Assembly (NCBI GenBank): GCA_040752795.1
Contig: JBFMGH010000608.1
Coordinates: 22,209-86,208 of the forward strand
Length of the DNA stretch: 64,000 bases
Origin: Cyanobacteriota bacterium
GTDB lineage: Bacteria; Cyanobacteriota; Vampirovibrionia; JBFMGH01
Reading direction: 5' to 3'
Program-made: the position numbers and the translations under genes
Shown: positions 41,936-60,626 of the stretch, one piece after another
Position numbering within the stretch: the first letter of the stretch is position 1
Layout: each line of letters begins with the position of its first letter
The notes under the pieces: generated by a model
What the model saw: the letters and a program-made list of their open reading frames with translations, nothing else
Told to the model about the DNA's origin: nothing
Databases searched by the model: none

Positions 41936-42737
41936 TATTTTCTAATATAACCTCATTTAGACTTCCTGTTCTATAACCTTGCAGGTCTAATACAACATAT
42001 GTATAACCAATTTCTTTTAATTTTTCTATTACAAGGTCAGCATGGAATGATACAAAATTAATAATCTTGCTTTTATCAACTTCTATACGGGCAAGATTGT
42101 TATGATGCCTTATCCTTACTGGCGAATAACCCAGCTCTTTAAGAAACTTTTCAGCATCAGAAATCATTTTAAGATTTTCAGGTGTTATTTTAATACCATA
42201 TGGTATTCTTGAGGCCAGGCATGGATTGGCTGGTTTGTTGCAGTTAGGCATATTAAGTTCTCTGGCAAGGCTATAGATCTCATTTTTGGTTATACCAGAC
42301 TCTAGTAGCGGGCTTTTTATACCCAGTGAATGAGCGTGCTTTAGCCCTGGTCTGTAATCTTGAAGATCATCAATATTGTCACCTGACGCAACATATCTAT
42401 AACCTTTTTGTTCTGCAATTTTAATAATCTGCTTAAAGCGAATATCTTTACACCATTTGCACTTGTCTTTTGGGTTGTTGGTAAATTCAACATATTTCAA
42501 CTCATCAGATTCAACTATAAGATGAGGCCATTTAAAAGTTTCGGCAATTTTTTTTGCTTCTTCTAATTCTGCAGTGGTGATGGTTTCTGAATTTGCTGTT
42601 ACGGCAAGAAATTTGTCCTGTAATACTAAATGTGCAAAATAGCACAGAATAGTACTGTCAACACCACCCGAGAAGCCAACAATAACTGATTCATATGATT
42701 TTAAGATCTCTTTTAACTTTTTAATTTTTTCTTCCAT
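41925..42737 (-). CDS. larE: LarE-like PP-loop ATP pyrophosphatase (sulfur-insertion protein)
   Basis: 270 aa. It has the PP-loop GFSGGVDST, the conserved Cys region NKPANPCLASRIPYG and a length typical of LarE (TIGR00268). Confidence 0.7.
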   Translation of the reverse strand: MEEKIKKLKEILKSYESVIVGFSGGVDSTILCYFAHLVLQDKFLAVTANSETITTAELEEAKKIAETFKWPHLIVESDELKYVEFTNNPKDKCKWCKDIRFKQIIKIAEQKGYRYVASGDNIDDLQDYRPGLKHAHSLGIKSPLLESGITKNEIYSLARELNMPNCNKPANPCLASRIPYGIKITPENLKMISDAEKFLKELGYSPVRIRHHNNLARIEVDKSKIINFVSFHADLVIEKLKEIGYTYVVLDLQGYRTGSLNEVILENNEH

Positions 42738-44634
42738 TTTTTTTATTCCAGATATACCTTTTTGCCTGTAAAAGTTTTGTAATTCTATTCATTTCGAGTA
42801 CAAGATAAACAAAGGGGTTTATAATATTATGGACTCTTTTAGCTGTTAGAAATTCTCCGTTTTCAGAACTGGTAGTCATATTAGCAAGTATATTAACAGC
42901 TGGGGGTCTGGCAGCATCTACAATACCGAAAATATACAGATCTGTTTTTTCGCCGTGAGCGTTATTGATTTTACCTTCAGCAATTTTCTGAGCTAACATA
43001 TTAAGAGCAGGTGACTCTGTAGTGGTTCTGCAGCTTGCATCATAAACTTCGTGGAATGGTTGATAATTGTTATTTACCTGTTTTATGGGTTCTGGTATGA
43101 ATTTTATTAGCCATGTTTTTGTTTCCAGTATTTCTTTTAGCCTTATAGCTAGTGGGTCATTAGGAGGGAGCTTGTATCCTGGTTTTTCTTTCATTCTTCT
43201 TTCTATTTCTTTTATTATTTCTTTTTCTTCTTCCTGAAGGCCTAATAGAATCTGTTTAATACACCCCCTTGTGGTTTGAACATCAACAACTTTTGGTATT
43301 TCAACGCAATGATTCCAGTCTGTAACAAGTATAATAATTCTATGGTTAAGGCTTTTATCCTTAATTAGCTCTCTATGTGCTATTCTTAGAGCTGTTTCAA
43401 TATCAGTGGTGTAGTCTTGGTTCTCTGTTAACTTAAAAGAATAGTTGATTGGGCCTCCGTCTCTATTTATTGCTTTTACATATTTTTTAAATTCTGTAAA
43501 AGCGTTGTTTTTATCAGGCCCTGTTGGTGGAAGTAAGTAAGATAGATCTGTAGAACCTGCAAAAGGTAGAAAACCTATCTTGAATATTTGAGAAGGGCCA
43601 GCCTCTTCTTTTTCCAGTAGGTTGGCAAAGGTATACAAACCACTTCTTACCATTTCAATTCTGGAAATAGCACTGTCTCCCCAGTTTATACTTTCTGTGC
43701 TTGCTAGAGCTGATAAAGCATTATTAAACTCTGTGAACCTTAAGTCTGCTATTTGTTTTGCTGCAGCCTGCCCCAGTGGGTGGCCAAAAAGTTTATCTAT
43801 TGGCATGTCAAATAGCATAGATGGTCTATATCTCTCGTCAAAATCTGTTTTTGGATTATCATATATGCTGCCAACTGCAAAATCATCTTCATTTTTGTAT
43901 TTCTGGTGTGGTGTTCCAAAAGTTCCGTCATAAGATACATCAACATTACAATTATTGTAAATATAATTTATAACCTTTTCGGGTGGTGTATTTTTTGCAA
44001 ATACGGGATATTTTTCTTTTGGGACTGTTTTTGTAGCCTCTTCGTTTGGATCAACAACAGCCAGTGGGTTATGGCCCCATCCATAGTTTGACATAGACAT
44101 TGAAGGTGTCATGTCTACAACAAACATTATTCCTATAGCTGGCTCTTCAAATTTTTTCTCAGGCTTTTGAATTAAAATTTTGCTACCTAACACAAGGCTT
44201 GGCTTTGGTACATCAATTTTAGGCATTTTATAGAAGACTTCCAGTGTTGCATCTATTAAATAATTTCCGTCTGGAAGAAGCCGCTCATTTTTTTTGGAGG
44301 AATATGAAACGTTGCGGAGTATCCATCTGTAGTGAATATTTGTTTTTTGATCTTTATAAATTTGAGTTTTTATTTCATAATCATTTTTTTGATTGAATAC
44401 ATTATATTCTTCTAAAACCCCGATAAATTCAGGGCTACTTCCAACAGCTTTTTCCATAAGGCTACTTGCTACAGCTCTTTCGTGGCTTAATAGTTTGCCT
44501 TCGGCACCGGACTGACCACTAGTACTGCCTCTGCTTATTACTATAATTGGTATAATAGCAAGTGAGATAATAAGTAAACTTATTGCCAGTTCAACCATGC
44601 TAAATCCAATATAACCGTTTCTCTTTATTGACAT
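42721..44634 (-). CDS. Modular type IV prepilin-like protein with von Willebrand A module
   Basis: 637 aa. The class III signal MSIKRNGYIG/FSMVELAISLLIISLAIIPIIV has the expected G-1, F+1 and E+5. The vWA MIDAS-like motifs are VVDMTPSMS and IIILVTDWN. Confidence 0.65.
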   Translation of the reverse strand: MSIKRNGYIGFSMVELAISLLIISLAIIPIIVISRGSTSGQSGAEGKLLSHERAVASSLMEKAVGSSPEFIGVLEEYNVFNQKNDYEIKTQIYKDQKTNIHYRWILRNVSYSSKKNERLLPDGNYLIDATLEVFYKMPKIDVPKPSLVLGSKILIQKPEKKFEEPAIGIMFVVDMTPSMSMSNYGWGHNPLAVVDPNEEATKTVPKEKYPVFAKNTPPEKVINYIYNNCNVDVSYDGTFGTPHQKYKNEDDFAVGSIYDNPKTDFDERYRPSMLFDMPIDKLFGHPLGQAAAKQIADLRFTEFNNALSALASTESINWGDSAISRIEMVRSGLYTFANLLEKEEAGPSQIFKIGFLPFAGSTDLSYLLPPTGPDKNNAFTEFKKYVKAINRDGGPINYSFKLTENQDYTTDIETALRIAHRELIKDKSLNHRIIILVTDWNHCVEIPKVVDVQTTRGCIKQILLGLQEEEKEIIKEIERRMKEKPGYKLPPNDPLAIRLKEILETKTWLIKFIPEPIKQVNNNYQPFHEVYDASCRTTTESPALNMLAQKIAEGKINNAHGEKTDLYIFGIVDAARPPAVNILANMTTSSENGEFLTAKRVHNIINPFVYLVLEMNRITKLLQAKRYIWNKKNGRKN

Positions 44635-46227: not shown

Positions 46228-47187
46228 GTGCCTGAAATAGTGAACAGTACTTTTAATAAATATTTTCACCAGCCTGTAATGGTAAATAAAGTTATAGAAG
46301 CTTTAGATTGTGAGCCAGGAAAAGTTTATGTTGATTGCACAGTGGGTGGTGCAGGGCATTCTGTTTTAATTGCTCAAAAAATAAAACCAGATGGAAAACT
46401 TATTTGTCTTGATGTTGATCAAAATGCTATTGATGAGGCAACAAATAACTTAAAATCTTTTAATAATGTATATATATTAAGGTTGAATCATCTTAATTTA
46501 CCACAGGTTTTGAACCAGGTTGGTGTTGATAAAATAGACGGTGGAGTACTAATGGATCTGGGCGCTTCATATTATCAGTTAACCTCCCCGGATAAAGGAT
46601 TTACTTTTCAATGTTCTTCCCGGCTTGATATGAGAATGGATGAAACATTAATTACTTCTGCCGAGGATCTTGTTAACAATCTTAGTGCTGAAGAATTAGC
46701 TGAAATATTCTGGAAATATGGAGAAGAAAGGCATTCTAGAAAAATTGCATCCGCTATTAGTAATTATTCTAAAAAAGAGAAAATAACAGATACCCTTCAG
46801 CTTGCTGAAATAATTAAAACTGCTATACCCGGATACAAAAAATACAAAATACATCCTGCAACCAGAACATTTCAGGCGCTGAGAATTTTTATTAATAAAG
46901 AGTTAGAGGTATTGGAAGGTTCTCTATCTAACTTAATTAGTCTTACATCTCCCGGGGCAAAAATTGTTGTAATAACTTTTCATTCTTTAGAAGACAGGAT
47001 TGTTAAAAATTTTTTTAAACATTGGTCAAAAGACTGTGTATGCCCATCAGAAATGATTGAATGTAGATGTAATCATAAAAAGAAGCTAAAAATAATAACA
47101 AAAAAACCAATTGTTCCAGATAATAATGAGTTAGAATGTAATCCTGCAGCACGTAGTTCAAAATTAAGAATTGCAGAAAGGGTTTAA
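46228..47187 (+). CDS. rsmH: 16S rRNA (cytosine1402-N4)-methyltransferase RsmH
   Basis: 319 aa. It has HQPVMVNKVIEAL, the SAM-binding DCTVGGAGHS and PATRTFQALRIFIN motifs. Confidence 0.9.
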   Translation: MPEIVNSTFNKYFHQPVMVNKVIEALDCEPGKVYVDCTVGGAGHSVLIAQKIKPDGKLICLDVDQNAIDEATNNLKSFNNVYILRLNHLNLPQVLNQVGVDKIDGGVLMDLGASYYQLTSPDKGFTFQCSSRLDMRMDETLITSAEDLVNNLSAEELAEIFWKYGEERHSRKIASAISNYSKKEKITDTLQLAEIIKTAIPGYKKYKIHPATRTFQALRIFINKELEVLEGSLSNLISLTSPGAKIVVITFHSLEDRIVKNFFKHWSKDCVCPSEMIECRCNHKKKLKIITKKPIVPDNNELECNPAARSSKLRIAERV

Positions 47188-47188
47188 A

Positions 47189-47599
47189 ATGTTATCTTCA
47201 AAAATATTTAGAAGTGAAAGAAACATTATTGAAAATAATTACGACACAGATTTTGAAGAAGAATCAAGATTTAGTGGGGCTTTTAAAAAAATAGTATGTA
47301 TACTTGTTCTTTTTGCAGCAATATCTTCCTTTGTCAGTTATACATTAGTACTCTCAAAAGAAAAAGAATTGCAGTTTTTACATTCTAAAACTGTTTCAAA
47401 GGAGATGGATAACATATATATGAGAAATAATGTTGAGTTTACTAAAAGCCTTTATAATGTTAACAAAAAGGCAAAGTCGATTAATTACCTGCAAAAGCCA
47501 TTAAAGATTATTGAAATTGATTTAGATGAAAAAAAATTAAGTATAGATCTTGATAAAACATTGCAATATTCAAATGATAGAATAGTTGCAGGTTATTAA
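47189..47599 (+). CDS. FtsL-like small bitopic cell-division protein
   Basis: The ATG at 47189 is 1 nt after the rsmH stop (the track shows an upstream TTG at 47171). The protein is 136 aa with a single TM (IVCILVLFAAISSFVSYTLVL) followed by a coiled-coil-like region. It sits at the ftsL position of the dcw cluster. Confidence 0.45.
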   Translation: MLSSKIFRSERNIIENNYDTDFEEESRFSGAFKKIVCILVLFAAISSFVSYTLVLSKEKELQFLHSKTVSKEMDNIYMRNNVEFTKSLYNVNKKAKSINYLQKPLKIIEIDLDEKKLSIDLDKTLQYSNDRIVAGY

Positions 47600-47667
47600 T
47601 ATACCTGTTATATTTGCTTATTATGTATTATTTGTTATTAAAACTAATGGTATAAATTTTTATTAAT

Positions 47668-49203
47668 ATGGAGAAAATTAAATTGGCCAAGCATTTGACA
47701 GATTTATTAGAGTTAAAAAATATAAAATATGATTTAATTAAAGCGGAAAATGATAATAACCCTTTAATAAACGCTATTTCGTATAATTCTAAGACTACAG
47801 AACCAGGTAATATATTTGTTTGTCTGGTAGGTGAAAATTTTGATGCACATAAATTTGTTGATGATGCAATATTAAAAGGTGCAGTGGCAGTTATAGCACA
47901 GAAAAATATTAAGGGGTTAAGTGTTCCTGTAGTAGTAGTAGAAAATACTGCTAAGGTAATGGCTGTAGTAGCTACAGAAATATATGATAATCCAAGCAAG
48001 AGAATAAGACTTATTGGTATAACAGGGACTAATGGTAAAACTACAGTCACACATCTTGTAGAAAAGATTCTTGAGAAAAATAAAAAGAAATGCGGTCTTA
48101 TCGGTACACTTGGCCATAGGTTTAAGAGTACTGATAAATATTTAAATAGTAAGCATACTACACCTCAAGCCCCTGAGTTGCAGTCTTATCTAGCAGAAAT
48201 GGTTGATCAGAAATTTGATTATACGGTTATGGAAGTTAGTTCGCATGCACTGGATTTACATAGAGTCCAGGATTGTCATTTTGCAGTGGCCCTCATAACA
48301 AATTTAACTCAGGATCATCTTGATTTTCATGTTACTATGGAGAACTATGCCAGTGCTAAATTAAAGTTATTCAGTCAATTGGCAGAGTCTGAGTTAGAGA
48401 ATAAAACTGCTATTATTAATATTGATGATAATTATGCCGGAAAATTTCTTGAAATAATACCTGATAACATAACTAAATTGACTTATGGTTTAGCTTCTGA
48501 TGCTGATATTCAAGCTGTTGATATTGAATATTCTGTCAATGGGACAGTTTTTACCTGTGTTGCACCTGAAAAAACATTTAAAGTAAACTTAAAATTAAAA
48601 GGACTATTTAGTGTTTATAATGCTTTATCTGCAATAAGTGTTTCTATAGCTGAAAAAGTTCCACCTGAGATAATATGTGAAGCGCTTGAAGAAATTGAGA
48701 ATATACCTGGCAGGTTTGAAACTGTATCAAGCAATCCTTTAATAATAGTAGACTACGCACATACACCAGATGGGTTATCTAATGTGCTAACAGCAGCAAG
48801 AAAACTAGTACCAGATGGTGGAGAATTAATAACATTATTTGGTTGTGGTGGGGATAGAGATCCTACAAAACGTCCTAAAATGGCTAAAATAGTCGAGGAT
48901 CTTTCAGATAAAATTATTGTTACCTCTGATAATCCAAGAACGGAAGACCCTCAACAAATTATAACAGACATATTAACAGGCATTAAAAGTCTGGGTTCAA
49001 GTCATGTTAAGGTTGAAATAGATAGAGCACTGGCGATTGAAATGGCTATTAAATCTGCAAAACCTGATGATGTAATTGTAGTTGCTGGCAAAGGTCATGA
49101 AGATTACCAGATATTAGCTGATAGAACAATTCATTTTGATGACAGGGAAGAAGTTAAAAAGGTAATTGAAAAATTGAATCTTGCTAAATCAATAAGCACT
49201 TAG
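47668..49203 (+). CDS. murE: UDP-N-acetylmuramoyl-L-alanyl-D-glutamate--2,6-diaminopimelate ligase
   Basis: 511 aa. It has the Mur ligase P-loop GITGTNGKTT and the DAP-specifying region DNPR (SDNPRTEDP). Confidence 0.9.
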   Translation: MEKIKLAKHLTDLLELKNIKYDLIKAENDNNPLINAISYNSKTTEPGNIFVCLVGENFDAHKFVDDAILKGAVAVIAQKNIKGLSVPVVVVENTAKVMAVVATEIYDNPSKRIRLIGITGTNGKTTVTHLVEKILEKNKKKCGLIGTLGHRFKSTDKYLNSKHTTPQAPELQSYLAEMVDQKFDYTVMEVSSHALDLHRVQDCHFAVALITNLTQDHLDFHVTMENYASAKLKLFSQLAESELENKTAIINIDDNYAGKFLEIIPDNITKLTYGLASDADIQAVDIEYSVNGTVFTCVAPEKTFKVNLKLKGLFSVYNALSAISVSIAEKVPPEIICEALEEIENIPGRFETVSSNPLIIVDYAHTPDGLSNVLTAARKLVPDGGELITLFGCGGDRDPTKRPKMAKIVEDLSDKIIVTSDNPRTEDPQQIITDILTGIKSLGSSHVKVEIDRALAIEMAIKSAKPDDVIVVAGKGHEDYQILADRTIHFDDREEVKKVIEKLNLAKSIST

Positions 49204-50345
49204 TTTTGATAGACCTTAACATTGTTTCTGCCATCATTTTTAGCTTCATATAATGCTATATCTGCCCTTTCAATTAATTCTTCAGGCGAATTAATGTTAT
49301 CTTTTGATTTTAATGTTGCTACGCCAGCAGATATTGTAATGGATTTAATGTTTTCATTGCTTCCTGCCCTGACTCTTGATTCAATTTTCCTTCTAATTGA
49401 TTCAGCAAGGTTTTTAGCCTGTTCTGAACTTAGTTTAGTTCCGATAATAACTATTTCTTCACCACCATATCTAGCAGCAACAATGTTCTTAGTGCATGCG
49501 TCAAGAATAATATTTGAAACCTGCTGTAATACCTGATCACCTATTTGATGCCCCAGTGTGTCATTGATATTTTTAAAGTGATCAATGTCAAGCATTATCA
49601 CAGATAAATAGTGGTTTCTAAGTTTTGCAAAGCTAAACTCGTTTTTAAGCCTTTCATTCATATATTTACGTGTTCTCAGTTTTGTTAAAGTGTCAGTAAT
49701 TATTTCTTTTTCCAGCTGGATATTTTTGTTCACCAGTTCAGCTTTTTCTCTATCTAAACGTTTAATTATTAAATTATAAGCTTCTTTTAAAGCATTATCT
49801 TTACGCTTAGAGGCTTTTTCATTTACAATTTCTTTTTTAAGATTTTCAATATTTCTTTTTACCCTATCTTTAGAGGTAATATCACTTTTGTCATGGCTTG
49901 TTTTACTGCTTGAACCAGATGAATTATCTGCTGTAAGCCTGTGGGCTTTTTGATGTTTATAAGATTTAGCATTTTTACCAATGCTTATAAATGCGTTTTC
50001 GTAATCAATTAATTTTGTTACGTAATATTCAAGAATACAACCAATTAGCACGCATAGTGCAAGAGTTGTCAGACTTGAGAATTCCAATAATCCACCTGTC
50101 TGTCTGATGAAAAATTCAGGGAAATATGCTTGAATTGATTCTGGTAAAAAGGGATTTATTGAGTTAAAAACGAAAGAAACAGGAAAGTTAATTATGTCAG
50201 TTAAGAAATACACAGGTTTTGAAATGTAAGCATAGTCAGGAACTCCAGTATGAATTCCATTGAACTTTAAAAATAACCTTGTTATAAACAGGGCAGATAG
50301 TGCAATATAGCTTAATTTAATTATTATTTTTAAAGTTTTAAACAT
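49200..50345 (-). CDS. Membrane-anchored diguanylate cyclase (GGDEF, active-site GGEEI)
   Basis: 381 aa. Two N-terminal TMs and a coiled coil precede a GGDEF domain with RYGGEEIVIIG. It is last in a four-gene minus-strand operon. Confidence 0.8.
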   Translation of the reverse strand: MFKTLKIIIKLSYIALSALFITRLFLKFNGIHTGVPDYAYISKPVYFLTDIINFPVSFVFNSINPFLPESIQAYFPEFFIRQTGGLLEFSSLTTLALCVLIGCILEYYVTKLIDYENAFISIGKNAKSYKHQKAHRLTADNSSGSSSKTSHDKSDITSKDRVKRNIENLKKEIVNEKASKRKDNALKEAYNLIIKRLDREKAELVNKNIQLEKEIITDTLTKLRTRKYMNERLKNEFSFAKLRNHYLSVIMLDIDHFKNINDTLGHQIGDQVLQQVSNIILDACTKNIVAARYGGEEIVIIGTKLSSEQAKNLAESIRRKIESRVRAGSNENIKSITISAGVATLKSKDNINSPEELIERADIALYEAKNDGRNNVKVYQN

Positions 50346-50349
50346 GTAA

Positions 50350-52032
50350 TTACAACTTAAATACTTTTTGTATTTCTGTAAAGCTAGTAAATCCTGATAT
50401 AACTTTATTTAACGCAATATCAAGCAGTGTTTTATGGCCAGAACTCTTCAGAAATGTATTTAGTTCATCTTCTGGTATGCCGTCATTAAATAGATTGATA
50501 GTTGTATCGTCCATATAAAAGACTTCAAAAATACCAGTTCTGCTTTTGAATCCAGTAGAATTGCAGTCTTTGCAGCCTTTTTCTTTAAAATATGTAATAT
50601 TTTCAGGAAGGTTGTATTTTTCGATTAACCTATTATCTATTTTATGTTCAATTTTACATTTATTGCAAAGTTTTCTGATTAATTTTTGATCAAATGTTGC
50701 ATTAACAATTTTACAAATGAGCTTGGGCTCAATACCATATTCTAAAAGGCGGTAAAGAATATTTGTAGCACTATCAGCTATTATTGATGTGATAATAAGC
50801 TGACCTGATAAAATCGATTTTACTATTAAATCAAGATTATCAAGGTTTGTTATTTCATCTATGTATAAAATATCAGGTTCTTGAAGAAAAACATTTTTTA
50901 AAGCTGTTTCAATATCAAAACTTTTAGATATGCTAAGCTGACTTTGATTAATTTTATCTATGTTGTACCTGATGGGAGATTCAATTGTCATTATATTTTT
51001 CTGTTCAGAATTGATAGACTCCAGTATAGAGTACATTGTTGTAGTTTGTCCTGATCCAAGTGGCCCTGCAGCAATTACAAGACCATTTTCTTTTGATATT
51101 CCACTTTTTAATAACTTTAATTGATCGTTATATAATCCAAGTAATTCGATATTAGGTGCTTTAGGAAAAATTTTAATAACAATTTTTTCTCCATAGTTTA
51201 TCGGATAAGTAGATACTCTTGCATTGATAATATCTTTACCAATATTTACTTCTAATCTGCCATGCTGCGGTAAATATTCTTCATTTATATCAAGGCCTGC
51301 GGCAGACTTGATTCTTGAAATGGGCTCGGGAGCCAGTAAAATTGGGAGGCTGCCCCTGCTATACAAAAGTCCGTCAATGCGAAATCTTACAATCATTTCA
51401 TCCTGTTGCGGGTCCATGTGTATTTCGGAGGCATTCTCATGTATAGCCTGATAAATTATGGCTCTTACAAGTCTATATACATTTACTTCGTCTGTATTGT
51501 CATCATTAAGCTCACTCTGCCAGTCAAATTTGGGTTTTTCCGGCCCTTTTTTAGTTGGTTCTATATTGTCAGAGTTAGCAGACTTAGTTTTATAATAATA
51601 GTTTATTGCGTGTGAAATGCTTCTTTCTGAGCAAATAACTGGTTCAACCTTATAGTTTGAACTTATATCAAGATTATTTAAGGCAAATAAATCTAAAGGA
51701 TCTGACATGGCAATGGTTAGAGTGTCTTCAATCTTAAATAGCGGTATTATCCTGTATTTAGTGGCCTCTTCAGAGCTTATTAGCCCTATGGAGCTGGAAT
51801 CTATAGTGTATTCATCAAGATTAACGTATGGGATATGAAGTTTTTTCTCCAGAAAATTAAGTAATTTCTCTTCATTTATAATATTATTTTGAATAAGAAT
51901 TTGCCCTAGGTTTGTTTGTTCGTTTCTTGAAAGGTCAATGGCATCAACGAGCTGGTTATAATCTAATAAACCTTCTCTAACCAGGTCATATTTGAGTTTA
52001 TCTATGGCCTTGTTTGTTATTTTATAATCCAT
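50350..52032 (-). CDS. GspE/PilB/MshE-family secretion-ATPase homologue with degenerate catalytic motifs (predicted pseudo-ATPase), MshEN-type N-domain retained
   Basis: 560 aa. The Walker A is GPLGSGQTT (Lys to Gln). The Asp box is IESPIRY (Asp to Ser). The Walker B is EPDILYIDEITN. The His box is ITSIIAD (His lost). The tetracysteine cluster CNKC ... CKDC is intact. The N-terminus has a T2SSE_N/MshEN-like motif LGQILIQNNIINEEKLLNFL. Confidence 0.75.
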   Translation of the reverse strand: MDYKITNKAIDKLKYDLVREGLLDYNQLVDAIDLSRNEQTNLGQILIQNNIINEEKLLNFLEKKLHIPYVNLDEYTIDSSSIGLISSEEATKYRIIPLFKIEDTLTIAMSDPLDLFALNNLDISSNYKVEPVICSERSISHAINYYYKTKSANSDNIEPTKKGPEKPKFDWQSELNDDNTDEVNVYRLVRAIIYQAIHENASEIHMDPQQDEMIVRFRIDGLLYSRGSLPILLAPEPISRIKSAAGLDINEEYLPQHGRLEVNIGKDIINARVSTYPINYGEKIVIKIFPKAPNIELLGLYNDQLKLLKSGISKENGLVIAAGPLGSGQTTTMYSILESINSEQKNIMTIESPIRYNIDKINQSQLSISKSFDIETALKNVFLQEPDILYIDEITNLDNLDLIVKSILSGQLIITSIIADSATNILYRLLEYGIEPKLICKIVNATFDQKLIRKLCNKCKIEHKIDNRLIEKYNLPENITYFKEKGCKDCNSTGFKSRTGIFEVFYMDDTTINLFNDGIPEDELNTFLKSSGHKTLLDIALNKVISGFTSFTEIQKVFKL

Positions 52033-52035
52033 AAC

Positions 52036-52407
52036 CTATGTTAACTCTAGGTACTTTTTAACTAACTTTGTTATAGTTTCAATATCAAAAGGCTTTGTAA
52101 TGTACTCGTTGGCGCCTGTTTCTTCTCCAATGATTTTATCTTCTTCCTGAGTTCTTGCTGTAACCATTAAAATAGGAATATGCTTGTATTTTGCATCGAA
52201 TTTTAAAAGCCTGCAAACCTTATATCCGTTGATTTTAGGTAACATTACGTCAAGAACAATTAAGTCAGGGTTCTGGGTTTTGGCTAAACTTAAGGCTTCT
52301 TCACCGTCATATGCAACAACACACTCTAAACCTTCACTTTCAAGAATGAATTGCAGTGTTTCTACGATATCCTTTTCGTCATCAACTATTAATACTTTTT
52401 TGCTCAT
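52036..52407 (-). CDS. Single-domain CheY-like response regulator
   Basis: 123 aa. It has the receiver acid pocket (VDDEKD), the phospho-acceptor D in LIVLDVMLP, and the conserved T and K (ILMVTA, ITKPF). Confidence 0.85.
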   Translation of the reverse strand: MSKKVLIVDDEKDIVETLQFILESEGLECVVAYDGEEALSLAKTQNPDLIVLDVMLPKINGYKVCRLLKFDAKYKHIPILMVTARTQEEDKIIGEETGANEYITKPFDIETITKLVKKYLELT

Positions 52408-52443
52408 TGTTGACCCTCAATACAGCTTACTATTTACTTTAAA

Positions 52444-54537
52444 TTAGCATTTTAGAATTGGTATTGTGCTTTTAAGGCTTAATTCAATAAGTTCTTCACT
52501 TACAATAGCGTCATCAGGATAAATAGCAATTCCTAAGGTTAAGTTAGATTGATTACTTTCACACATATCTTTCGAAAATTGCTTCTTGATTCTTTTTACT
52601 ACGTTTTTTGCAGCAAATTTATCAGTATTTGAAAGAACTATTTTGATTATATTATCTTCGATTAAAAACTTTGATTTATCATCTTTTCTAAAAATATTTA
52701 CAATTTTATTTGAAACTTCTTCCATAACGTCTTTGGAGTATTCATTATTGTTTTTTATAGAAATTAAAGCAAGGCAGGAGTGGTTTTGCTTGGATTGCTG
52801 GAGTTTACTATCAAGTTCTAATAAGAAAATACTTTCCTGTCTTGCTGTAGGTAATATTAAGCAGAATTTACTGCCCTTATTTAACTCACTTTCAACCCAT
52901 ATTTCTCCTCTATGAGCATCTACGAGCTGTTTGGTTATGGCCAGGCCTAGGCCTGTTCCACCTACTTCACGGCTAAGGGAGCTTTCAATCTGTTGGAACT
53001 TGTCGAATACTTTATGAATATCTTCTTTTGCTATGCCTACACCCGTATCTTCTATTGCTATCTTAAGATACTCACCTTTAATTTTCTGACCTGCTTTGAT
53101 GTTTATAGAAGCTGGATCTTTATAGAAAAGTGTGTCATCCAGATTGGATGCGTCAACTAACTCAAGTGTTACTTTAATCTTTCCTCCACTGTGGGTGAAT
53201 TTTATTGCGTTTGAAACAAGATTGGCAAAAATTTGTTCTAACTTAGTGCAGTCTCCATAGATTTTTGGGAAGTTATTCTCTGGAATATTTGTTTCAATAA
53301 AGATATTTTTAGGATCTGCTACTGGTTTAAAAGTTGATATAACCATATTTAGTGGCTCGGCAATATCCAGTTCTGCAAATTTATAATCCATTTTGCCAGC
53401 TTCAATTTTAGAAAGGTCAAGTAAGTCATTTATAATACTTGATAACCTATCAACGTTTCTTTTGGCATTAGAGAGAAATTTTTCCTGTATAGATGTTATA
53501 TCTCCGCCTTTTTTTGTTAAGATAATATCTATAGAGCTTTTGATTGCTGTAAGTGGTGTTCTAAGTTCATGAGAGACTATTGAAATGAATTCAGATTTTA
53601 ATTTTTCTAGTTTCTCCAGTTTTATATTTTTTTCTTTGATTTCTTCGTAAAGAATAGCACTCTCTAAAGGTAAAGAAACCTGTTTAACAACGGTCTGAAA
53701 GCAGGTTATATCTTCGCCGGTAAATTCTGTTTCTCTAATAATTTCAACGGCTCCAAATGGGTTATCTGCAACGTTTATAGATGAGAACAGGTAGTCTTTA
53801 TCTAATATGTCAAGAGTTAACGTTTCATCTGATTTTCTTATGTTTATTTCAACTTCTAAATCCTCGGGTGTTAAATCGTCTCGATCTTCTCCTGTGTTTT
53901 CAAGATAGTTTGTGAGAATTCTTTCTTTAAGTTTTTCAAGTAATTCTTCAGTAATACTTTTTGAAGAATTTATAATAAGAAGAGGTTTTCCTTCATCAAG
54001 CACTAGTGTGCAGCATAAAGAGTGCTTAAGGCTTTTTTCAAGTCCAGTGTTCATTATTTTTAGGAGTTTATTTTTATCTAATGTGCCGGCAAACTGTGAA
54101 GAAGTATTGTATAATACATTTAGCTGGTATAAACTCTTAGCTAATTCACTATTGTTGGTATATAGAATATCTAATAATTTTTTAATACGCAGATGTGCAT
54201 TGATTGTAGCAATCAAAATACTATCACTAAAAGGCTTGGTTATGTAACCATCTGCACCGGCTAATATCTCATCAGGAGAGGAGTCTTTATCTGTAAGTAA
54301 TAATATTTGTATGTCATTAGTTTGAGTATAGAATTTCAAGTTTTTGCATATATTTGATAGGTTATCCTTGACTACTGTGGCGTCTATTAGCACTATATCA
54401 GGTAAATTTTCGTTAGTTAGTGCAATTGCTTCATCGCCGTTTTTGGCTAATAGCACTTCGTAGCCAAACTCAGCCAGGAGATTATGAATTTTATCAGCTC
54501 TTTTTAAGTTGTTATCTACTAAAATAATTTTTGACAT
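52444..54537 (-). CDS. Hybrid sensor: N-terminal receiver, HisKA, HATPase_c, C-terminal degenerate GGDEF-like domain
   Basis: 697 aa. It has a receiver (ILVDNN ... VLIDATV ... ITKPF), an H-box SHELRTPLTAI, and G1/G2 boxes (EDTGVGI, GGTGLGLAI). The about 130-aa C-terminal tail aligns to the GGDEF fold (LTLGIAIYPDDA), but the GG(D/E)EF position is IEDNI. Confidence 0.75.
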   Translation of the reverse strand: MSKIILVDNNLKRADKIHNLLAEFGYEVLLAKNGDEAIALTNENLPDIVLIDATVVKDNLSNICKNLKFYTQTNDIQILLLTDKDSSPDEILAGADGYITKPFSDSILIATINAHLRIKKLLDILYTNNSELAKSLYQLNVLYNTSSQFAGTLDKNKLLKIMNTGLEKSLKHSLCCTLVLDEGKPLLIINSSKSITEELLEKLKERILTNYLENTGEDRDDLTPEDLEVEINIRKSDETLTLDILDKDYLFSSINVADNPFGAVEIIRETEFTGEDITCFQTVVKQVSLPLESAILYEEIKEKNIKLEKLEKLKSEFISIVSHELRTPLTAIKSSIDIILTKKGGDITSIQEKFLSNAKRNVDRLSSIINDLLDLSKIEAGKMDYKFAELDIAEPLNMVISTFKPVADPKNIFIETNIPENNFPKIYGDCTKLEQIFANLVSNAIKFTHSGGKIKVTLELVDASNLDDTLFYKDPASINIKAGQKIKGEYLKIAIEDTGVGIAKEDIHKVFDKFQQIESSLSREVGGTGLGLAITKQLVDAHRGEIWVESELNKGSKFCLILPTARQESIFLLELDSKLQQSKQNHSCLALISIKNNNEYSKDVMEEVSNKIVNIFRKDDKSKFLIEDNIIKIVLSNTDKFAAKNVVKRIKKQFSKDMCESNQSNLTLGIAIYPDDAIVSEELIELSLKSTIPILKC

Positions 54538-54619
54538 ATTGATATTTTACCAGTTTTGATAAGTATTTTTTTAGAAATTTTTGTTATATCATTATCCTTT
54601 AATAAAGGGAGTAAAATCA

Positions 54620-55051
54620 ATGGAAAGATGTCCTTCTTGTAATGCACCTGTAAGCTCAAATAGTAAGTTTTGTAATGAGTGTGGATATGGTTTAATACAG
54701 AGTTCAACTTCTAATGTGCCATCTGATACAACTAAAAGGTCATACAAGTTACGTTCCCCTATATTAGAATCAGCTATATTGTATGACGATACAACCGAAA
54801 AAAAGCATGGTATGCTTGTTATCCTTTCATATAGTTTTTGGTTTTTTGCTGTTATATTTATAATTTATGGTATTATGCTTATCTATAAAAACTATACTAT
54901 AGATATTTTTAAGTCAGTAGTAGATGCCTCAATGCTATTTGCGCTTTCATTTGTGTGCTTTATACTTCCTGGTATTATAAATATACTTGTAGATATAGAA
55001 GAAAATCTTAAAGTTTTAGTAAAGGAGAGCAGGAAAGATAAAATAGACTGA
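54620..55051 (+). CDS. Zinc-ribbon membrane protein
   Basis: 143 aa from the ATG at 54620, which follows a GGGAG SD. The N-terminus has CPSCNAPV ... CNECG (a double CxxC ribbon), followed by two TM helices. Confidence 0.55.
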   Translation: MERCPSCNAPVSSNSKFCNECGYGLIQSSTSNVPSDTTKRSYKLRSPILESAILYDDTTEKKHGMLVILSYSFWFFAVIFIIYGIMLIYKNYTIDIFKSVVDASMLFALSFVCFILPGIINILVDIEENLKVLVKESRKDKID

Positions 55052-55137
55052 ATCATATAATTGAGTATCTTGCTTTTTAACTAAAACTGATCTACTATAA
55101 AAAATGAAGTTAGTATAAAAAGAGTGGTAATTGGAAA

Positions 55138-55518
55138 TTGAACAATAGTACTACGACTTTAGAAAACGTTAAACTTTCTCCAGATATAGAAAAACTTTCA
55201 CTAATAGAATGCCCTATAGAAAGGGCAATGGAATTAATAGGGGACAAATACTCTGTTTTAATAGTTTTAAATCTTGCACAGTATGGTAAGCAAAGATTCA
55301 TAGAACTAGAGCAGTCAATTAAAGGAATTTCACCAAGAACGCTATCTGCAAGACTGAAACACCTGGAGAAGTATGACATTATTACAAGAAAACAATTCTC
55401 AACTATACCACCCAAAGTGGAATATTCTTTAACTGAAAAAGGCGAGCGGTTTAAAGTTGTTATTGAGCATATGAGTGACTGGGTAAATCAATGGTACCCA
55501 TATACTGCTCAAAAATAA
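55138..55518 (+). CDS. HxlR-family transcriptional regulator
   Basis: 126 aa. The winged-HTH core is CPIERAMELIGDKYSVLIVLNL ... RTLSARLKHLEKYDIITR. Confidence 0.75.
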   Translation: MNNSTTTLENVKLSPDIEKLSLIECPIERAMELIGDKYSVLIVLNLAQYGKQRFIELEQSIKGISPRTLSARLKHLEKYDIITRKQFSTIPPKVEYSLTEKGERFKVVIEHMSDWVNQWYPYTAQK

Positions 55519-55532
55519 ATACTGATAAATAT

Positions 55533-56237
55533 TTAGTCTTCAAAACGATATTTAAATAAAGTCCATATAGCCTGAAGTCCATCTTTCCAGGTTATCTTTT
55601 TACCTTCTTCATAGTCTCTGCCCTTATAAGAGATAGGTATTTCAATTATTTTATATTTTCTTTTCATTATTTTGGCGGAAATTTCAGGCTCAAAGTCAAA
55701 TTTGTTAGATTTAATGACAAAGCTTTTAATTACATCTGCCCTGAAAACTTTATAACAGGTTTCCATATCAGTTATAGAAGCACCATATAAAAGGTTGGTT
55801 AAAAAAGTTAGAAGCTTGTTAGCCATAAAACTTAGAAGTAAAAAGTTCTTTTTACTTTCTTCAGAAGCAAATCGTGAACCGTATACGATATCAGCCGTAT
55901 TGTTTTTAAATGGTTCTAGTAGTTTATTGTATTCAGATGGGTCATATTCAAGGTCAGCATCCTGAATTAATATTATGTCACCTGTTGTATAGTGCAAACC
56001 TGTTCTTAAGGCAGCTCCTTTTCCCATGTTATGGCCATGATAATAGATTTTGTATTTTTCTGTATCTTCTAATTTGTTTAATAAATCTCTAGTTCCATCT
56101 GTTGAACCATCGTCAACCAGTACGATTTCTTTTACAATATTACCAATATCTACGCTTTCTACTTTTTTAAGGACTTCTTCTAAGAACTTTATTTCATTGT
56201 AGATTGGTATTAAAATACTAAGCTTATTTATATTCAT
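55533..56237 (-). CDS. Family 2 glycosyltransferase (polyprenyl-phosphate hexose/pentose transferase-like, soluble)
   Basis: 234 aa. It has the GT-A motifs [27 protein letters not shown] and a DxD (QDADLEYD). Confidence 0.8.
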
Positions 56238-56249
56238 AAAATACCTCTA

Positions 56250-57272
56250 TTAAGTTGTTTCTGATTGACTTTCTTCTGGTAGTTCCTTTAAAGAAAGATG
56301 GCTGTGCCATGATAGAATTAAACCAATCAATACTACAGGGCCAATCATAATGAATTGAGTTGCAATAGCTATTGCTAAAGCGGTATCTTTCGGAACAGCT
56401 GACAAATCTAAGGCTAATATAAAAGCGTATTGATAGGGTCCTATAAAAGCAGGTCCTGATGGTATCATTGTACTGAATGCTACAAGTACAATTAAGAAGG
56501 CTACAGTTAAAGGTGTAACTTTTGTTGGGATGTCAAACCCACTTATAATACAAAATATTGTAGTCCACTCTAGAAACCAGGCACATATGCTGGTGAATAC
56601 AATAAATAATAAACTCCTGAAAGATGTTATGACACCTAAGCCAACAATGAATGATTTTAGTATTTTTTCAATTTTATTTTGTAAAAATTCAGGTAAAGCC
56701 TTTAAAATGCCAGTTATAAAACTATAATTTAGGTTTTCAGATCTTGATATGAAAACAATAACTGCCAGGCCTGTCAAGAATATCAGGCTGGTAACAATAC
56801 ATATGTGTACCAATAGCGGAGATTTATAAAAGAACATGATAAGTATAATCATTAGACTAACCAGTGTTAATCCATCAAAGATTCTCTCGGCAACAATAGA
56901 ACCTAAAGCCCCACTACGAGTTATCTTTTGCTCAGTGCCTATAATATGGGCTCTATATAACTCCCCCATTCTGGCTGGTAAAAGGGTATTTGCCATATAT
57001 CCTATGTATAAAGCTTTAAGTACTCCGAGAAAACTTATTTTCTTTGAGACAGAAAGTAGTTGTCTCCACCTGAAAGTTCTAATAATATATGATAATGCAT
57101 ATATTATTATTGCAGGTAAGGCATATTTAATATTGAAAGATTTTATTGAAGATATAAACTGGTTAATATTTATATTGTAAAAGATAAGTATCAAGAATAA
57201 TATACTAATAAATATTCCGAAAGTTTTATGATTAATCCATTTTGGAAACGTTAGTTCTTTTTGCATACTCAA
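56250..57272 (-). CDS. Flippase-like polytopic membrane protein (lysylphosphatidylglycerol-synthase TM-region family)
   Basis: 340 aa with about 8 TM helices, and a charged loop RTFRWRQLL after TM2 as in MprF/LPG_synthase_TM proteins. It is adjacent to GT2. The 5' end overlaps the UXS-like gene by 35-41 nt depending on start choice. Confidence 0.6.
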
Positions 57273-58188
57273 TATACCAGTTTATAGACTTTAACAGCCC
57301 TTCTTCTAGCCCTACAACAGGTTCCCAATTTAAATGTTGTTTGGCAAAAGAAATATCAGGTCTCCGGACTTTAGGATCATCTTCAGGCAGTGGTTTGAAA
57401 ATGATATCACTTTTACTATTACTTAATTTTATAATTAATTTGGCTAAATCCAAAATAGAAATTTCTTGTGGGTTACCAATGTTGACAGGAGTATTGATAT
57501 CAGAGTTCATCAGGGCAAATATGCCTTCTATAAGATCTGAAACATATTGTATACTTCTGGTTTGAGAACCATCGCCAAAAACTGATAGAGGCTCATTTTT
57601 AAGTGCTTGATTAATAAATGTTGAAACGACCCGCCCATCATCTGGTCTCATTCTTTCGCCATGAGTATTAAAGATTCTTGCAATTCTGGTATTGAGCCCG
57701 TGTTCATTGTGATATGCAGTAGTTAATGCTTCACCGAATCGTTTGGATTCATCATAACAGCCTCTTGGGCCAATAGGGTTAACATTGCCCCAGTAGCTTT
57801 CTGGCTGTGGATTAATTAGTGGATCTCCATAAACTTCTGATGTTGATGCAAATAAAAATTTAGAATGCTTATTCATTGCTAGCCCAAGTGCATTGTGAGT
57901 TCCTAGTGATCCAACCTTAAGTGTTTGTATCGGGTAATTAAGATAATCAATAGGGCTTGCCGGGGAAGCAAAATGTATAACCCAATCTAGCTTTTGAGAA
58001 ACATAAATATACCTGCTTACATCATGGTAGATAAATTCAAAATTTCTATTTGATCTATGAATTTCCAGGTTTTCAATCATACCTGTAATAAGATTATCTA
58101 AAACATACACTTTATGACCTTCTTCTATTAGTTTGTCACATAAGTGTGAGCCTAAGAATCCTGCTCCGCCTGTTATTAATATATTCAT
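57232..58188 (-). CDS. UDP-glucuronate decarboxylase (UXS/ArnA C-terminal-domain-like SDR)
   Basis: 318 aa. It has [18 protein letters not shown], the catalytic YDESKRFGE region and [26 protein letters not shown], which is typical of UXS/ArnA decarboxylases. Confidence 0.8.
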
Positions 58189-58189
58189 T

Positions 58190-59632
58190 TTAAAATCCTA
58201 TTCCTGCTCCAATTCTTTCCATTTCGGTACTTCTGCCTACGGTATAATGTAAAATACCTTTTTCTTTTGCTGTCTTAGGGTCAATAATATTTCTAGCATC
58301 TATTATTATTGGTATAGCCATCACTTCTTTGACTTCAATCAAGTTCATATACTTGAACTCATCCCATTCAGTAACGATTATGATAGCTTCACAATCTTTC
58401 GCAAGATCCATTATGTTATTTTCATATGTTAATTCAAGTTCGGGATTTTGTTCTTTACAGTTAGGCATTGCAATTGGATCATAAGCCTTTACCCGGGCAC
58501 CCATTTTTATCAGTTGTCGTATTATTGTCAAGCTAGGTGCATCCCTTAGGTCGTCAGTGTTAGGCTTGAACGATAGGCCTAAAACCCCTATGGTTCTGCC
58601 TTTAATTATTTTTAGAGCTTGTTGTAGCTTTTTAACAATGGTTTGTCTTTGTTTCATGTTGACGTTGATAGTGGATTGAAGCAGTTCTGGGTGAAAATCA
58701 TATTCTTTTGCAATGCTTATAATAGCGTTAAGGTCTTTGCCAAAACAGCTACCTCCCCATCCAATACCTGCTTTAAGAAATTTACCGCCTATTCTGGAGT
58801 CCAGTCCAATGCCTTTTGCTACCTGTTCTATATCTGCTCCTACGCTTTCACAAATATTTGCAACTTCATTAATGAAGCTAATTTTTGTTGCTAGAAAAGC
58901 ATTAGAGGCATATTTTATCATTTCTGCGCTTGTGATGTCTGTAACAACAAGTGGTACAGCGTTAATGCCAGCTGGAGCAACAAGTTCTTTTATAGGTGGT
59001 GTAAAATTCTGCTGTAATATTGGTTCATATAGTTTATTTAGAATAATTACAGCTCTTTCATCACTGGTGCCAATTACAACTCTATCTGGATAAAGTGTGT
59101 CATATATAGCACTACCTTCTCTCAAGAACTCGGGATTACTCGCTACAAGAAAACCAGGATTGCAACAGCTATTTATATTGTTTTCTTTGCTGCACTTTTC
59201 ATGAGCTTTTCTCACCCCTTCGTTTACAAGCATTTCAACCCAGTTCCCTGAGCCTATTGGAACAGTTGATTTGTTAATAATTATTCTTACTCTATCAGTA
59301 TCTAAAGCCTCGCCAATAGCATATGAAACATTTTTAACGTATTCTAGATTAGGTTCACCATCTTCTAATGGTGGTGTGCCAACAGCTATAAATACTACTT
59401 CAGATTTTTTAACGGCACTTATAGTATCTGTAGTAAACTTAATGTTGCCACTTTTAATACATATTTTTAGAAGTTCTTCTAGGCCTGGTTCATAAAAAGT
59501 AGGTATTCCTTGTTGTAATTTCTCTACTTTCTTTGCATCTATATCAACACAATTAACATTATTGCCTAAATAAGCAAGGCATACGCCTGTTACCAATCCC
59601 ACATAACCTGTACCAGTTACACAAACTTCCAT
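58190..59632 (-). CDS. ugd: UDP-glucose 6-dehydrogenase
   Basis: 480 aa. It has an N-terminal Rossmann ([10 protein letters not shown]) and the catalytic Cys region GGSCFGKD. It lies 2 nt upstream of the decarboxylase gene. Confidence 0.9.
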
Positions 59633-59831
59633 TTATTTATCCTCATTGTTTAGTATTTTCCAGCAAGAATAATATACCAAAGATATAAAAGCCATGGGCA
59701 TTTTTATTAAGTAATCATATCAGTTTAATTTAGAATTTATACTTTTGGTTTTGTTTTCAATTATAATAACTCTTAAGCTTAACTAACATTAATAGTTAAT
59801 CAGTTATAAATCTTGTTATGGAAATCAAATA

Positions 59832-60581
59832 TTGATTAATAATCACAAAATAGCGGTTGTTATACCTGCTTATAATGAAGGGTTATTAATAACTTCTACA
59901 ATTGAGGGTATACCTGCTTATGTTGATTATATTATAGTTGTTGATGATTCATCTGAAGACAATACGTCTACTAATGTTAGGGAAATAGATAGATCAGGTT
60001 TGATATTATTAACACATAATAAAAATTATGGAGCTGGAAGAGCTATAGTATCTGGATATAAAGAAGCATTATTATTAAATTGCGATATTGTTGCTGTCAT
60101 GGCAGGAGATGGGCAAATGTGTCCTGGTGACCTTTTAAATATATTAGCACCTATTATTGAAGGCAAAGCCAATTATTCTAAAGGAAACAGGTTTATCTCT
60201 AAGGATTGTATTCTGATAATGCCAAAATTGCGTGTATTTGGTAATTTTTGTTTTTCAATAATTTCCTGTATTGCTTCAGGATATTATCATATTTTTGATA
60301 CACAATGTGGTTATACAGCAATTGATAAAGATACATTGTTGAAACTTGATTTAAATAATCTGTATTTTGGCTATGGTTATCCTACAGACTTTTTAGCGCG
60401 GCTTGGAATGATTTATGCCAGGGTTGTAGATGTACCAGTAAAAGCAATCTATAATACAGAAACATCTGGTATAAGACCTTTACCTTATACTTTGACAATT
60501 ATTCAATTGGCTATAAAGCTTTTTATAGAAAGACAAATTCAGAGAACGAAACGAAAACTTGCTTTAATTCAGAATTATTAA
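59832..60581 (+). CDS. Family 2 glycosyltransferase (ArnC/DPM1-like, soluble)
   Basis: 249 aa with an apparent TTG start. It has VVIPAYNE, VVDDSSEDNT and NYGAGRA motifs and DGQM as the DxD-equivalent. Confidence 0.7.
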   Translation: MINNHKIAVVIPAYNEGLLITSTIEGIPAYVDYIIVVDDSSEDNTSTNVREIDRSGLILLTHNKNYGAGRAIVSGYKEALLLNCDIVAVMAGDGQMCPGDLLNILAPIIEGKANYSKGNRFISKDCILIMPKLRVFGNFCFSIISCIASGYYHIFDTQCGYTAIDKDTLLKLDLNNLYFGYGYPTDFLARLGMIYARVVDVPVKAIYNTETSGIRPLPYTLTIIQLAIKLFIERQIQRTKRKLALIQNY

Positions 60582-60626
60582 TTACTCTGGCAAGTTGCGT
60601 GTTAAAACACTTTCAGGAGTAAGTCA

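Follow-up and report, generated by a model that had tools for sequence, protein, structure and literature searches.

What does a PilB-type ATPase do when it has lost its catalytic residues and is encoded beside a sensor kinase and a CheY-like protein? ATPases of the PilB type are regarded as motors, and discussion of how they are regulated usually assumes control of an active enzyme. The question is raised by four adjacent genes in a 64,000-nucleotide (nt) stretch of DNA (i.e., the whole stretch that was analyzed, here called the window) from a metagenome-derived Cyanobacteriota bacterium of the GTDB lineage Vampirovibrionia (a nonphotosynthetic relative of cyanobacteria in the Melainabacteria; GenBank assembly GCA_040752795.1, contig JBFMGH010000608.1, positions 22,209 to 86,208 of the forward strand; GC content, approximately 32%). 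An earlier note, made from the letters of the window, had described these genes as an operon that couples a hybrid kinase, a CheY, a catalytically dead GspE/PilB-like protein, and a diguanylate cyclase in a candidate cyclic di-GMP (c-di-GMP) signaling module. On the basis of the computational follow-up reported here, we consider it probable that the locus is a two-component cassette with a PilB-family pseudo-enzyme as its output partner, in which the phosphorylated receiver (phospho-REC) would act on a noncatalytic adaptor. The four genes are listed below in transcription order.

52444-54537, minus strand: hybrid kinase gene (697 amino acids [aa])
52036-52407, minus strand: CheY-like receiver (REC) gene (123 aa)
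50350-52032, minus strand: PilB/GspE homologue gene (560 aa)
49200-50345, minus strand: membrane GGDEF cyclase gene (381 aa)

All four open reading frames (ORFs) were confirmed at exactly these coordinates, as the earlier note had them. They are co-directional, with 36, 3, and 4 nt between successive genes, and murE is convergent with the last of the four, the cyclase gene. Profile searches with Pfam and NCBIfam models likewise bore out the proposed domains, namely, Response_reg, HisKA, and HATPase_c in the kinase, Response_reg in the REC, MshEN and T2SSE in the PilB homologue, and GGDEF in the cyclase.

The PilB homologue retains the overall fold and domain order of its family (N1D, N2D, the C-terminal domain [CTD], and the zinc cysteines), as judged from Pfam matches (MshEN, 1.8e-18; T2SSE, 1.2e-78) and a full-length alignment to PilB structures. 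An MshEN/N1D domain with motifs at residues 12 to 35 and 41 to 64 is followed by N2D, a degenerate ATPase core, and a retained CxxC...CxxC zinc motif. The protein scored well below the NCBIfam equivalog cutoffs for PilB (TIGR02538; 401 versus 676 bits) and GspE (TIGR02533; 339 versus 630 bits). Catalytic motifs were read from HMMER alignments to solved PilB structures, which were ungapped through the catalytic region. At the Walker A site (GPLGSGQT), GSGKT is replaced by GSGQT (K to Q); at the Asp box (TIESPIRYN), EDPVE is replaced by ESPIR (D to S and E to R); and at the Walker B site (DILYIDEITN), GEIRD is replaced by DEITN, with the Glu retained and the Arg gone. The His box has changed from TGHLVLSTLHTN to SGQLIITSIIAD, with the loss of both His residues. 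None of the motor-type patterns, i.e., Walker A GxxGxGK[ST], Asp box EDPxE, and His box TGHxxxSTxHT, is found in the protein. The description of this protein as catalytically dead, which would have failed if correct gapping had restored the residues, was therefore upheld: the Walker A Lys, the Asp-box Asp and Glu, and both His-box His residues are absent even in an ungapped alignment, and this is consistent across the clade.

A motif table compiled from 120 homologues of the window protein separated them into three classes. The closest 17 (49 to 100% identity; long form) all lack the Walker A Lys, with Gln in 16 and Gly in 1, and all lack both His-box His residues; most carry a new conserved motif, ESPIRYN, which replaces EDPIEY. 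A short form of approximately 455 aa, from Gastranaerophilales-type genomes, is without the C-terminal zinc domain and is likewise degenerate. Neighbors with 38% identity or less and a full CTD are all canonical in their catalytic motifs. Because the same residues have been lost across the whole Melainabacterial clade, the alignments identify the PilB homologue as a conserved pseudo-ATPase (hereafter pseudo-PilB) and not as a decaying gene. When 1.84 billion 50%-identity representatives were searched exhaustively, the pseudo-PilB family amounted to a handful among 10,123 PilB/GspE-like ones, and the best 150 of these 10,123 included just one unrelated, partly degenerate PilB. This protein (P0460; 577 aa) is a case of independent partial degeneration, with the motifs GPRRSGKTTT, TAESPIEWH, PEIED, and NGYRLLSSLDTKYA. 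Many other proteins of approximately 1,000 aa (P0371 to P0385 and similar) matched the query in at least two stretches; these appear to be PilB-like proteins in tandem or fused form, or PilBs with several N-terminal GSPII domains.

Is the gene arrangement as conserved as the loss of catalysis? A set of 45 loci, including the window, was assembled from contigs with clade members and from metagenome contigs scanned at the DNA level with a clade-specific back-translated pattern, KLKYDLVR(E/D)G. A REC orthologue was found directly upstream of the pseudo-PilB gene in 41 of the 41 loci with room for it, and a kinase gene was found upstream of the REC gene in 28 of 30 loci (L099 and L112 were the exceptions). 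The cyclase gene lies downstream of the pseudo-PilB gene in 5 of 7 long-form loci and in 0 of 18 short-form loci; one short-form locus has an MCP-signal (methyl-accepting chemotaxis protein) gene there instead. The short-form loci are in unrelated contexts, e.g., SMC/ScpAB or TilS neighborhoods. Because their contexts are unrelated and none of them carries the cyclase gene, the core unit is an autonomous set of three genes (kinase-REC-pseudo-PilB), and the cyclase is a lineage-specific addition. The four-gene order that had been proposed was thus conserved in its first three members and not in its fourth. The arrangement is far beyond chance, because it recurs in dozens of independent metagenomic loci. 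No protein of the cassette is more conserved than the REC (approximately 76 to 90% identical across Melainabacteria), which is canonical (Pfam Response_reg, 1.7e-30; D9/D10, D53, T83, and K105). Since REC homologues with at least 71% identity are numerous in Gastranaerophilales, "Candidatus Adamsella" (305 contigs), and several Melainabacteria metagenome-assembled genomes (MAGs), the cassette can be considered widespread in the class Melainabacteria, gut members included.

Phylogenetic analysis and the distribution of constraint bear on whether the pseudo-PilB is functional at all. In a neighbor-joining tree, the long and short forms were monophyletic (60 of 60 bootstraps) and were sister to the catalytically active PilBs of a related cassette described below (59 of 60 bootstraps), with branches 2.4 to 3.2 times longer than those of these sisters. 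Conservation within the pseudo clade was highest in the N1D/MshEN motif region (0.84), and the ATPase core was the least constrained folded domain (0.62), which is the inverse of the pattern in the active sisters (0.65 and 0.83, respectively). The N1D is near-invariant; 40 of the 55 invariant columns in the pseudo clade fall in the first 135 residues. The closest relatives are only approximately 60% identical, and synonymous sites are saturated. The long branches, an ATPase core less conserved than that of the active sisters, and the loss of the entire C-terminal zinc-binding domain in the short form are compatible with a nonfunctional relic, i.e., a drifting duplicate kept by recent ancestry or synteny. 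However, intact pseudo-PilB ORFs occur in more than 40 loci, and full-length ORFs persist among sequences that are 38 to 63% identical; the concentration of invariant columns at the N terminus, the new conserved ESPIRYN motif, and the linkage to REC in all 41 loci, in unrelated contexts, also argue against decay. We regard a relic as so improbable that it can hardly account for this gene. The constraint pattern reads instead as the signature of lost catalysis with an N1D-centered function retained or gained, and the strict conservation of the N1D more plausibly reflects a protein partner.

Could the pseudo-PilB still be a working motor, i.e., a pilus or secretion ATPase that hydrolyzes ATP or another nucleoside triphosphate via noncanonical residues? 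In its favor, there is partial retention of the Walker B Glu, the RFRIDG arginines, and the glycine-rich loop; the Walker A Lys survives in some short-form members; no other PilB was present in any fetched locus; and a prepilin-like gene lies 6 kb away in the window. These points have to be set against the simultaneous loss of the Walker A Lys (in the long form), the Asp-box Asp and Glu, and both His-box His residues, and against the weak constraint on the ATPase core. The P-loop itself varies within the pseudo clade (SSSGIGQT, GAFTSGQS, and GSLCSGGM), mutation of the Walker A Lys abolishes PilB function in Myxococcus xanthus, and no PilC or PilM neighbors were found. A motor is accordingly a very unlikely explanation. 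Pfam scans of approximately 30 of the larger window ORFs detected no PilC, PilM, PilN, PilO, or PilQ, and there is no second PilB/PilT-type (T2SSE-family) gene in the 64-kb window or in the 45 loci. The earlier note had seen no PilC/M/N/O/Q/T partners nearby and had inferred a regulatory paralogue rather than a motor; the first point agrees with these scans, and the second is supported by the clade-wide catalytic loss and by the lack of pilus partner genes in the scanned ORFs.

The note had also tied the pseudo-PilB to the machinery implied by the prepilin-like gene. This gene (42721-44634, minus strand) encodes a 637-aa protein with the prepilin-type leader NGYIG/FSMVELAISLLI and a weak match to VWA_2 as its sole domain match; the product is a very large pilin-like protein, with orthologues of approximately 635 aa at an equal relative position in loci L001 and L003. 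Prepilin genes were found near the cassette in 3 of the 45 loci; prepilin linkage was therefore rejected as a systematic feature of the cassette, and the proposed tie is weak.

From where did the module originate? The nearest catalytically intact PilBs are encoded in the same order, i.e., histidine kinase (HK), REC (123 aa), and PilB, at three loci, listed here.

L007: unclassified MAG; HK-REC-active-PilB cassette (PilB, P0019)
L008: Nitrospirota; HK-REC-active-PilB cassette (PilB, P0029)
L010: Syntrophales; HK-REC-active-PilB cassette

The RECs of L007 and L008 are 68 to 70% identical to the window REC, the HisKA-HATPase cores of the kinases are clearly orthologous to that of the window kinase, and the kinase tails of L008 and L010 match a profile of the dead GGDEF tail described below (45 and 27 bits, respectively). 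The L008 cassette adjoins pilM, pilN, pilO, a secretin gene, and pilS/pilR. Gene order, kinase core, and deviations in the MshEN motifs are thus shared with the Melainabacterial module, in keeping with the sister relationship in the tree; the active cassettes differ in that their PilBs keep all catalytic motifs and their kinases carry PAS/CHASE sensors rather than REC-GAF. As a background set, 80 unrelated PilB loci were collected from GTDB species representatives by a scan with the generic PilB peptide LT[IVL]AM[AS]DPL; among the matches listed, the HK-REC-PilB cassette occurred in 1 of the 80 loci (L010). The matches listed in the GTDB contig scan with this peptide were all canonical PilBs of other phyla, with none from Melainabacteria among them. 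Because gene order is the same, the RECs are 68 to 70% identical, the kinase cores are orthologous, and the tails match, the Melainabacterial module is shown, at the level of sequence, to derive from a pilus-linked HK-REC-PilB cassette whose motor turned noncatalytic. An isolated invention of the module is ruled out by the HK-REC-active-PilB cassettes in other phyla. The active cassette is itself apparently undescribed in the literature searched.

Each of the active loci also has elements related to c-di-GMP. A GAF-HD_5 gene (4557-5930) is beside the cassette in L007, a PAS-HD-GYP gene (8700-9899) is near that in L010, and the kinase gene of L008 (7037-8548) encodes a GGDEF tail that is detectable with Pfam but degenerate (PTNGE). 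Since all three loci carry such elements, the ancestral cassette may already have had a connection to c-di-GMP.

Which protein, then, would sense c-di-GMP in the window? The earlier note favored the pseudo-ATPase itself, with an MshEN domain that binds the product of the neighboring cyclase and makes the protein a responsive scaffold. The MshEN fold is retained, as are the 24+5+24 spacing and the hydrophobic Leu skeleton, the main contributor of binding energy in MshE, where c-di-GMP binding is mostly hydrophobic (PMC5013675); in addition, no part of the protein is more conserved than the N1D, and the cyclase gene is adjacent in the window lineage. However, five key positions are substituted. 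Motif I has R to K (I.1), G to K (I.3), and Q to S (I.24) changes, which give K-L-K...S, and motif II has R to N (II.1) and Q to K (II.24) changes, which give N-L-G...K. The NCBIfam c-di-GMP motif model NF053729 scored 33.7 bits, below its cutoff of 38. In GSPII-A of PilF, a natural nonbinder, Q to H, Q to R, or R to S changes each abolish binding, and a G to A change at position 3 reduces affinity for c-di-GMP (PMC12002112); three of the five substituted positions are sites where changes abolish binding in that domain. The active sister group has similar changes (G to K, Q to A, R to P/T/S, and Q to K), at these sites other PilBs for the most part retain G, Q, R, and Q, and the same deviations are present in the cyclase-free short-form loci. 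By analogy with PilF, canonical c-di-GMP binding by the MshEN domain of the pseudo-PilB is unlikely, and we doubt that the pseudo-ATPase is the c-di-GMP receptor; the MshEN part of the original proposal was not sustained. Because the active sister group has the same deviations, the noncanonical N1D is a trait of the cassette-linked subfamily that is older than the catalytic loss.

The hybrid kinase offers a better candidate. It consists of a REC domain (residues 1 to 112), a GAF region (approximately 104 to 311), HisKA (314 to 381), HATPase_c (429 to 565), and a dead GGDEF domain (approximately 566 to 697). Of these, Response_reg, HisKA, and HATPase_c were called by Pfam/NCBIfam; the SHELRTP motif is invariant, and the N, G1, and G2 boxes of HATPase_c are present. 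In the N-terminal receiver, D52, T82, and K104 are retained, and the acidic Mg-binding pair is D-N. This pair is not conserved among orthologues (e.g., ICEK and LSRD), and the domain may be an atypical receiver or a pseudo-receiver. An AlphaFold2 (AF2) model of residues 104 to 311 (predicted local distance difference test [pLDDT] score, 82) shows a GAF domain flanked by long signaling helices, for which the best Foldseek match was 6OAP, a cyanobacterial REC-GAF dual-sensor kinase, followed by many GAF domains.

The GGDEF tail was not called by Pfam on the full-length kinase. All seven orthologous kinase tails match PF00990, weakly, and diguanylate cyclases rank first in profile searches of the tail against the PDB. 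For a model of the C-terminal 130 residues (AF2 pLDDT, 82.6), the 50 best PDB matches in Foldseek were without exception GGDEF domains (best E value, 5.8e-9; TM score, 0.72). The modeling thus confirmed a GGDEF fold that is, on the predicted structure and motifs, catalytically dead. The A-site reads IEDNI in place of GG(D/E)EF and is not conserved among orthologues. Five residues before it, at canonical spacing, is an RxxD I-site (FRKDD-KSKFL-IEDNI). FRKDD is retained in 13 of 13 kinases of the window lineage, and the nearest relatives have IRKGD. The kinase tail had been put forward from the outset as a degenerate GGDEF and a candidate c-di-GMP receptor, and both suggestions gained from this evidence; reception of c-di-GMP through the I-site is a credible role for the tail in the window lineage.

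The membrane cyclase would be the source of the ligand. Its GGDEF domain (Pfam, 2.4e-44) has an RYGGEEI motif that is invariant in five orthologues, in which the last A-site residue is Ile, not Phe, and the substrate-binding residues are present (DxFKxxND, GHxxGD, and ADxALYxAKxxGRN). Across these orthologues, alignment and hydropathy indicate two N-terminal transmembrane helices, a variable linker, a conserved coiled-coil stalk, and the GGDEF domain; the RxxD I-site is absent from all five. Plausibly, the membrane cyclase is active, as the intact GGEEI had suggested, and free of product inhibition. Because the lineage that keeps FRKDD in the kinase is the lineage that carries the cyclase, a local c-di-GMP input in the window lineage is supported.

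We propose the following mechanism. The kinase, which has an intact catalytic core and three candidate inputs (the receiver, the GAF domain, and the dead GGDEF domain), would integrate signals and phosphorylate the REC. Phospho-REC would then bind the pseudo-PilB and alter how it oligomerizes, where it is located, or which partners it binds. The pseudo-PilB would resemble a permanently nucleotide-free PilB and might serve as a regulatory subunit or competitor at a type IV pilus platform or, alternatively, might signal to envelope or polysaccharide functions independently of pili. In the window lineage, the downstream membrane cyclase would supply c-di-GMP locally, and the likely receptor would be the RxxD I-site of the dead GGDEF domain of the kinase, as in SgmT, rather than MshEN. 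The protein is, apparently, a motor turned signaling adaptor. A more specific version is possible and is offered only tentatively: the pseudo-PilB would be the first natural signaling-only PilB, fixed in the nucleotide-free state and switched by a dedicated kinase via a phospho-CheY that binds the hyperconserved N1D, in a cassette-linked subfamily that as a whole, active and dead members alike, exchanged c-di-GMP sensing by MshEN for a phosphorelay and moved sensing to the dead GGDEF domain of the kinase.

Several observations weigh against this proposal. The Walker A Lys is retained in some short-form members, and parts of the family may therefore have residual nucleotide binding. Adjacency suggests that the HK and REC are a cognate pair but does not prove it. 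In the Melainabacterial loci, the cassette has no linked genes for a pilus platform. Finally, because the RxxD Arg drifts outside the window lineage and approximately 27% of the orthologous kinases are without the tail, c-di-GMP input cannot be essential to the core cassette.

Might the output be unrelated to pili? Directly upstream of the kinase gene in the window is an Arn-like sugar-lipid cluster (55533-61727). On the minus strand, it consists of genes for a family 2 glycosyltransferase (GT2; 234 aa), LPG_synthase_TM (340 aa), a NAD-epimerase/decarboxylase, and UDP-glucose dehydrogenase (Ugd); on the plus strand, it has genes for a second GT2 and a DegT aminotransferase. The minus-strand genes are syntenic with the cassette in L001, L002, L003, and L006 and not in the short-form loci. 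The cassette could regulate this cluster, and with it envelope glycosylation, via the pseudo-PilB as an adaptor. The position of the Ugd, epimerase, LPG_synthase_TM, and GT2 genes, which share the strand of the cassette and also flank it in those four loci, is compatible with such a role, and PilB is known to signal to exopolysaccharide (EPS) production in M. xanthus. However, the common flank may be mere synteny among close relatives, and the neighborhood is absent from the short-form loci, where the cassette is in unrelated contexts; we judge regulation of the adjacent cluster to be unlikely.

How does the proposed adaptor compare with known systems? The pseudo-PilB shares domain order and 33 to 38% full-length identity with the PilB/MshE/GspE ATPases (E value against solved PilB structures, 1e-95), from which it differs in the absence of catalytic residues, the hyperconserved N1D, and the lack of pilC, pilT, or pilM neighbors. 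One functional parallel is a laboratory mutant, PilB K327A of M. xanthus (Walker A), which is apo-like and gives a dominant gain-of-function signal for EPS (PMC5544727); the nucleotide-free conformation was proposed by Black et al. as the signaling state of M. xanthus PilB. A natural PilB lacking a functional Walker A motif would resemble this mutant, which does not bind or hydrolyze ATP and signals independently of pilus assembly. The mutant, however, is derived from a bifunctional motor, whereas the loss described here occurred in nature, is ancient and fixed in a clade, and is associated with a dedicated kinase and CheY. Binding of a phosphorylated regulator to an extension ATPase is also established, cyanobacteria included, for PixG/PixE-PilB1 of Synechocystis and PilG of Pseudomonas aeruginosa; PixG binds PilB1/PilC only when phosphorylated (PMC11181946). 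Those systems have a PATAN output domain or are Che-like and act on an active motor, whereas here a stand-alone REC is encoded beside a dead PilB paralogue. The N1D has been predicted to contact the stator (PMC11656802).

For the kinase, a close counterpart is SgmT of M. xanthus, in which a dead GGDEF domain uses its I-site to bind c-di-GMP and spatially sequesters the kinase (PMC3509222). Compared by domains alone, the two proteins have the same parts (REC, GAF, HK, and dead GGDEF), in the order GAF-HK-REC-GGDEF in SgmT and REC-GAF-HK-GGDEF here. SgmT also affects type IV pilus-dependent behavior via the extracellular matrix, but its partner is the DNA-binding regulator DigR, whereas the partners here are a CheY and a pseudo-PilB. 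A 2024 review of PilB regulation covers only active paralogues, e.g., TfpB and PilU. Neither a dead PilB/GspE paralogue nor an HK-REC-pseudo-PilB cassette was found described in the full-text literature searched, which excludes most papers in subscription journals, in agreement with the initial impression that this was not a described system. Every part is from a known family; what is new is that a two-component cassette includes a pseudo-enzyme of the PilB family.

Further features of the window lie outside the cassette. Genes for a Zn-ribbon membrane protein and an HxlR-family regulator (54581-55518, plus strand) are divergent from the kinase gene on its upstream side; this pair is in an equivalent place in L001, L003, and L006 and not in L002. 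On the other side is a fragment of the dcw (division and cell wall) cluster (46228-49203, plus strand) with rsmH, an ftsL-like gene, and murE. In the window and in L003, the ftsL-like gene and murE have no ftsI/PBP (penicillin-binding protein) gene between them, and L001 has a PBP_dimer/Transpeptidase gene at this position. A gene at 3984-8087 (plus strand) encodes a 1,367-aa membrane protein composed of PMT_2 (glycosyltransferase family 39-like) and DUF2298. A promoter and terminator scan yielded fewer promoter-like matches than were obtained in shuffled sequences and was uninformative at 32% GC.

To our knowledge, almost nothing is known about signaling and surface behavior in Melainabacteria. 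A clade-wide dead PilB tied to a CheY and a kinase constitutes a natural experiment on a signaling PilB, and it supports a signaling role for PilB that is separable from pilus assembly, a notion hitherto based on a laboratory Walker A mutant. The HK-REC-PilB cassette exists in "live" and "dead" versions, which are open to comparison. There is also a consequence for genome annotation. Since automated pipelines name the pseudo-PilB "PilB" or "type IV pilus assembly protein," inventories of pilus genes may overstate motor capacity, a caution that extends to Melainabacteria, including the abundant Gastranaerophilales of the gut.

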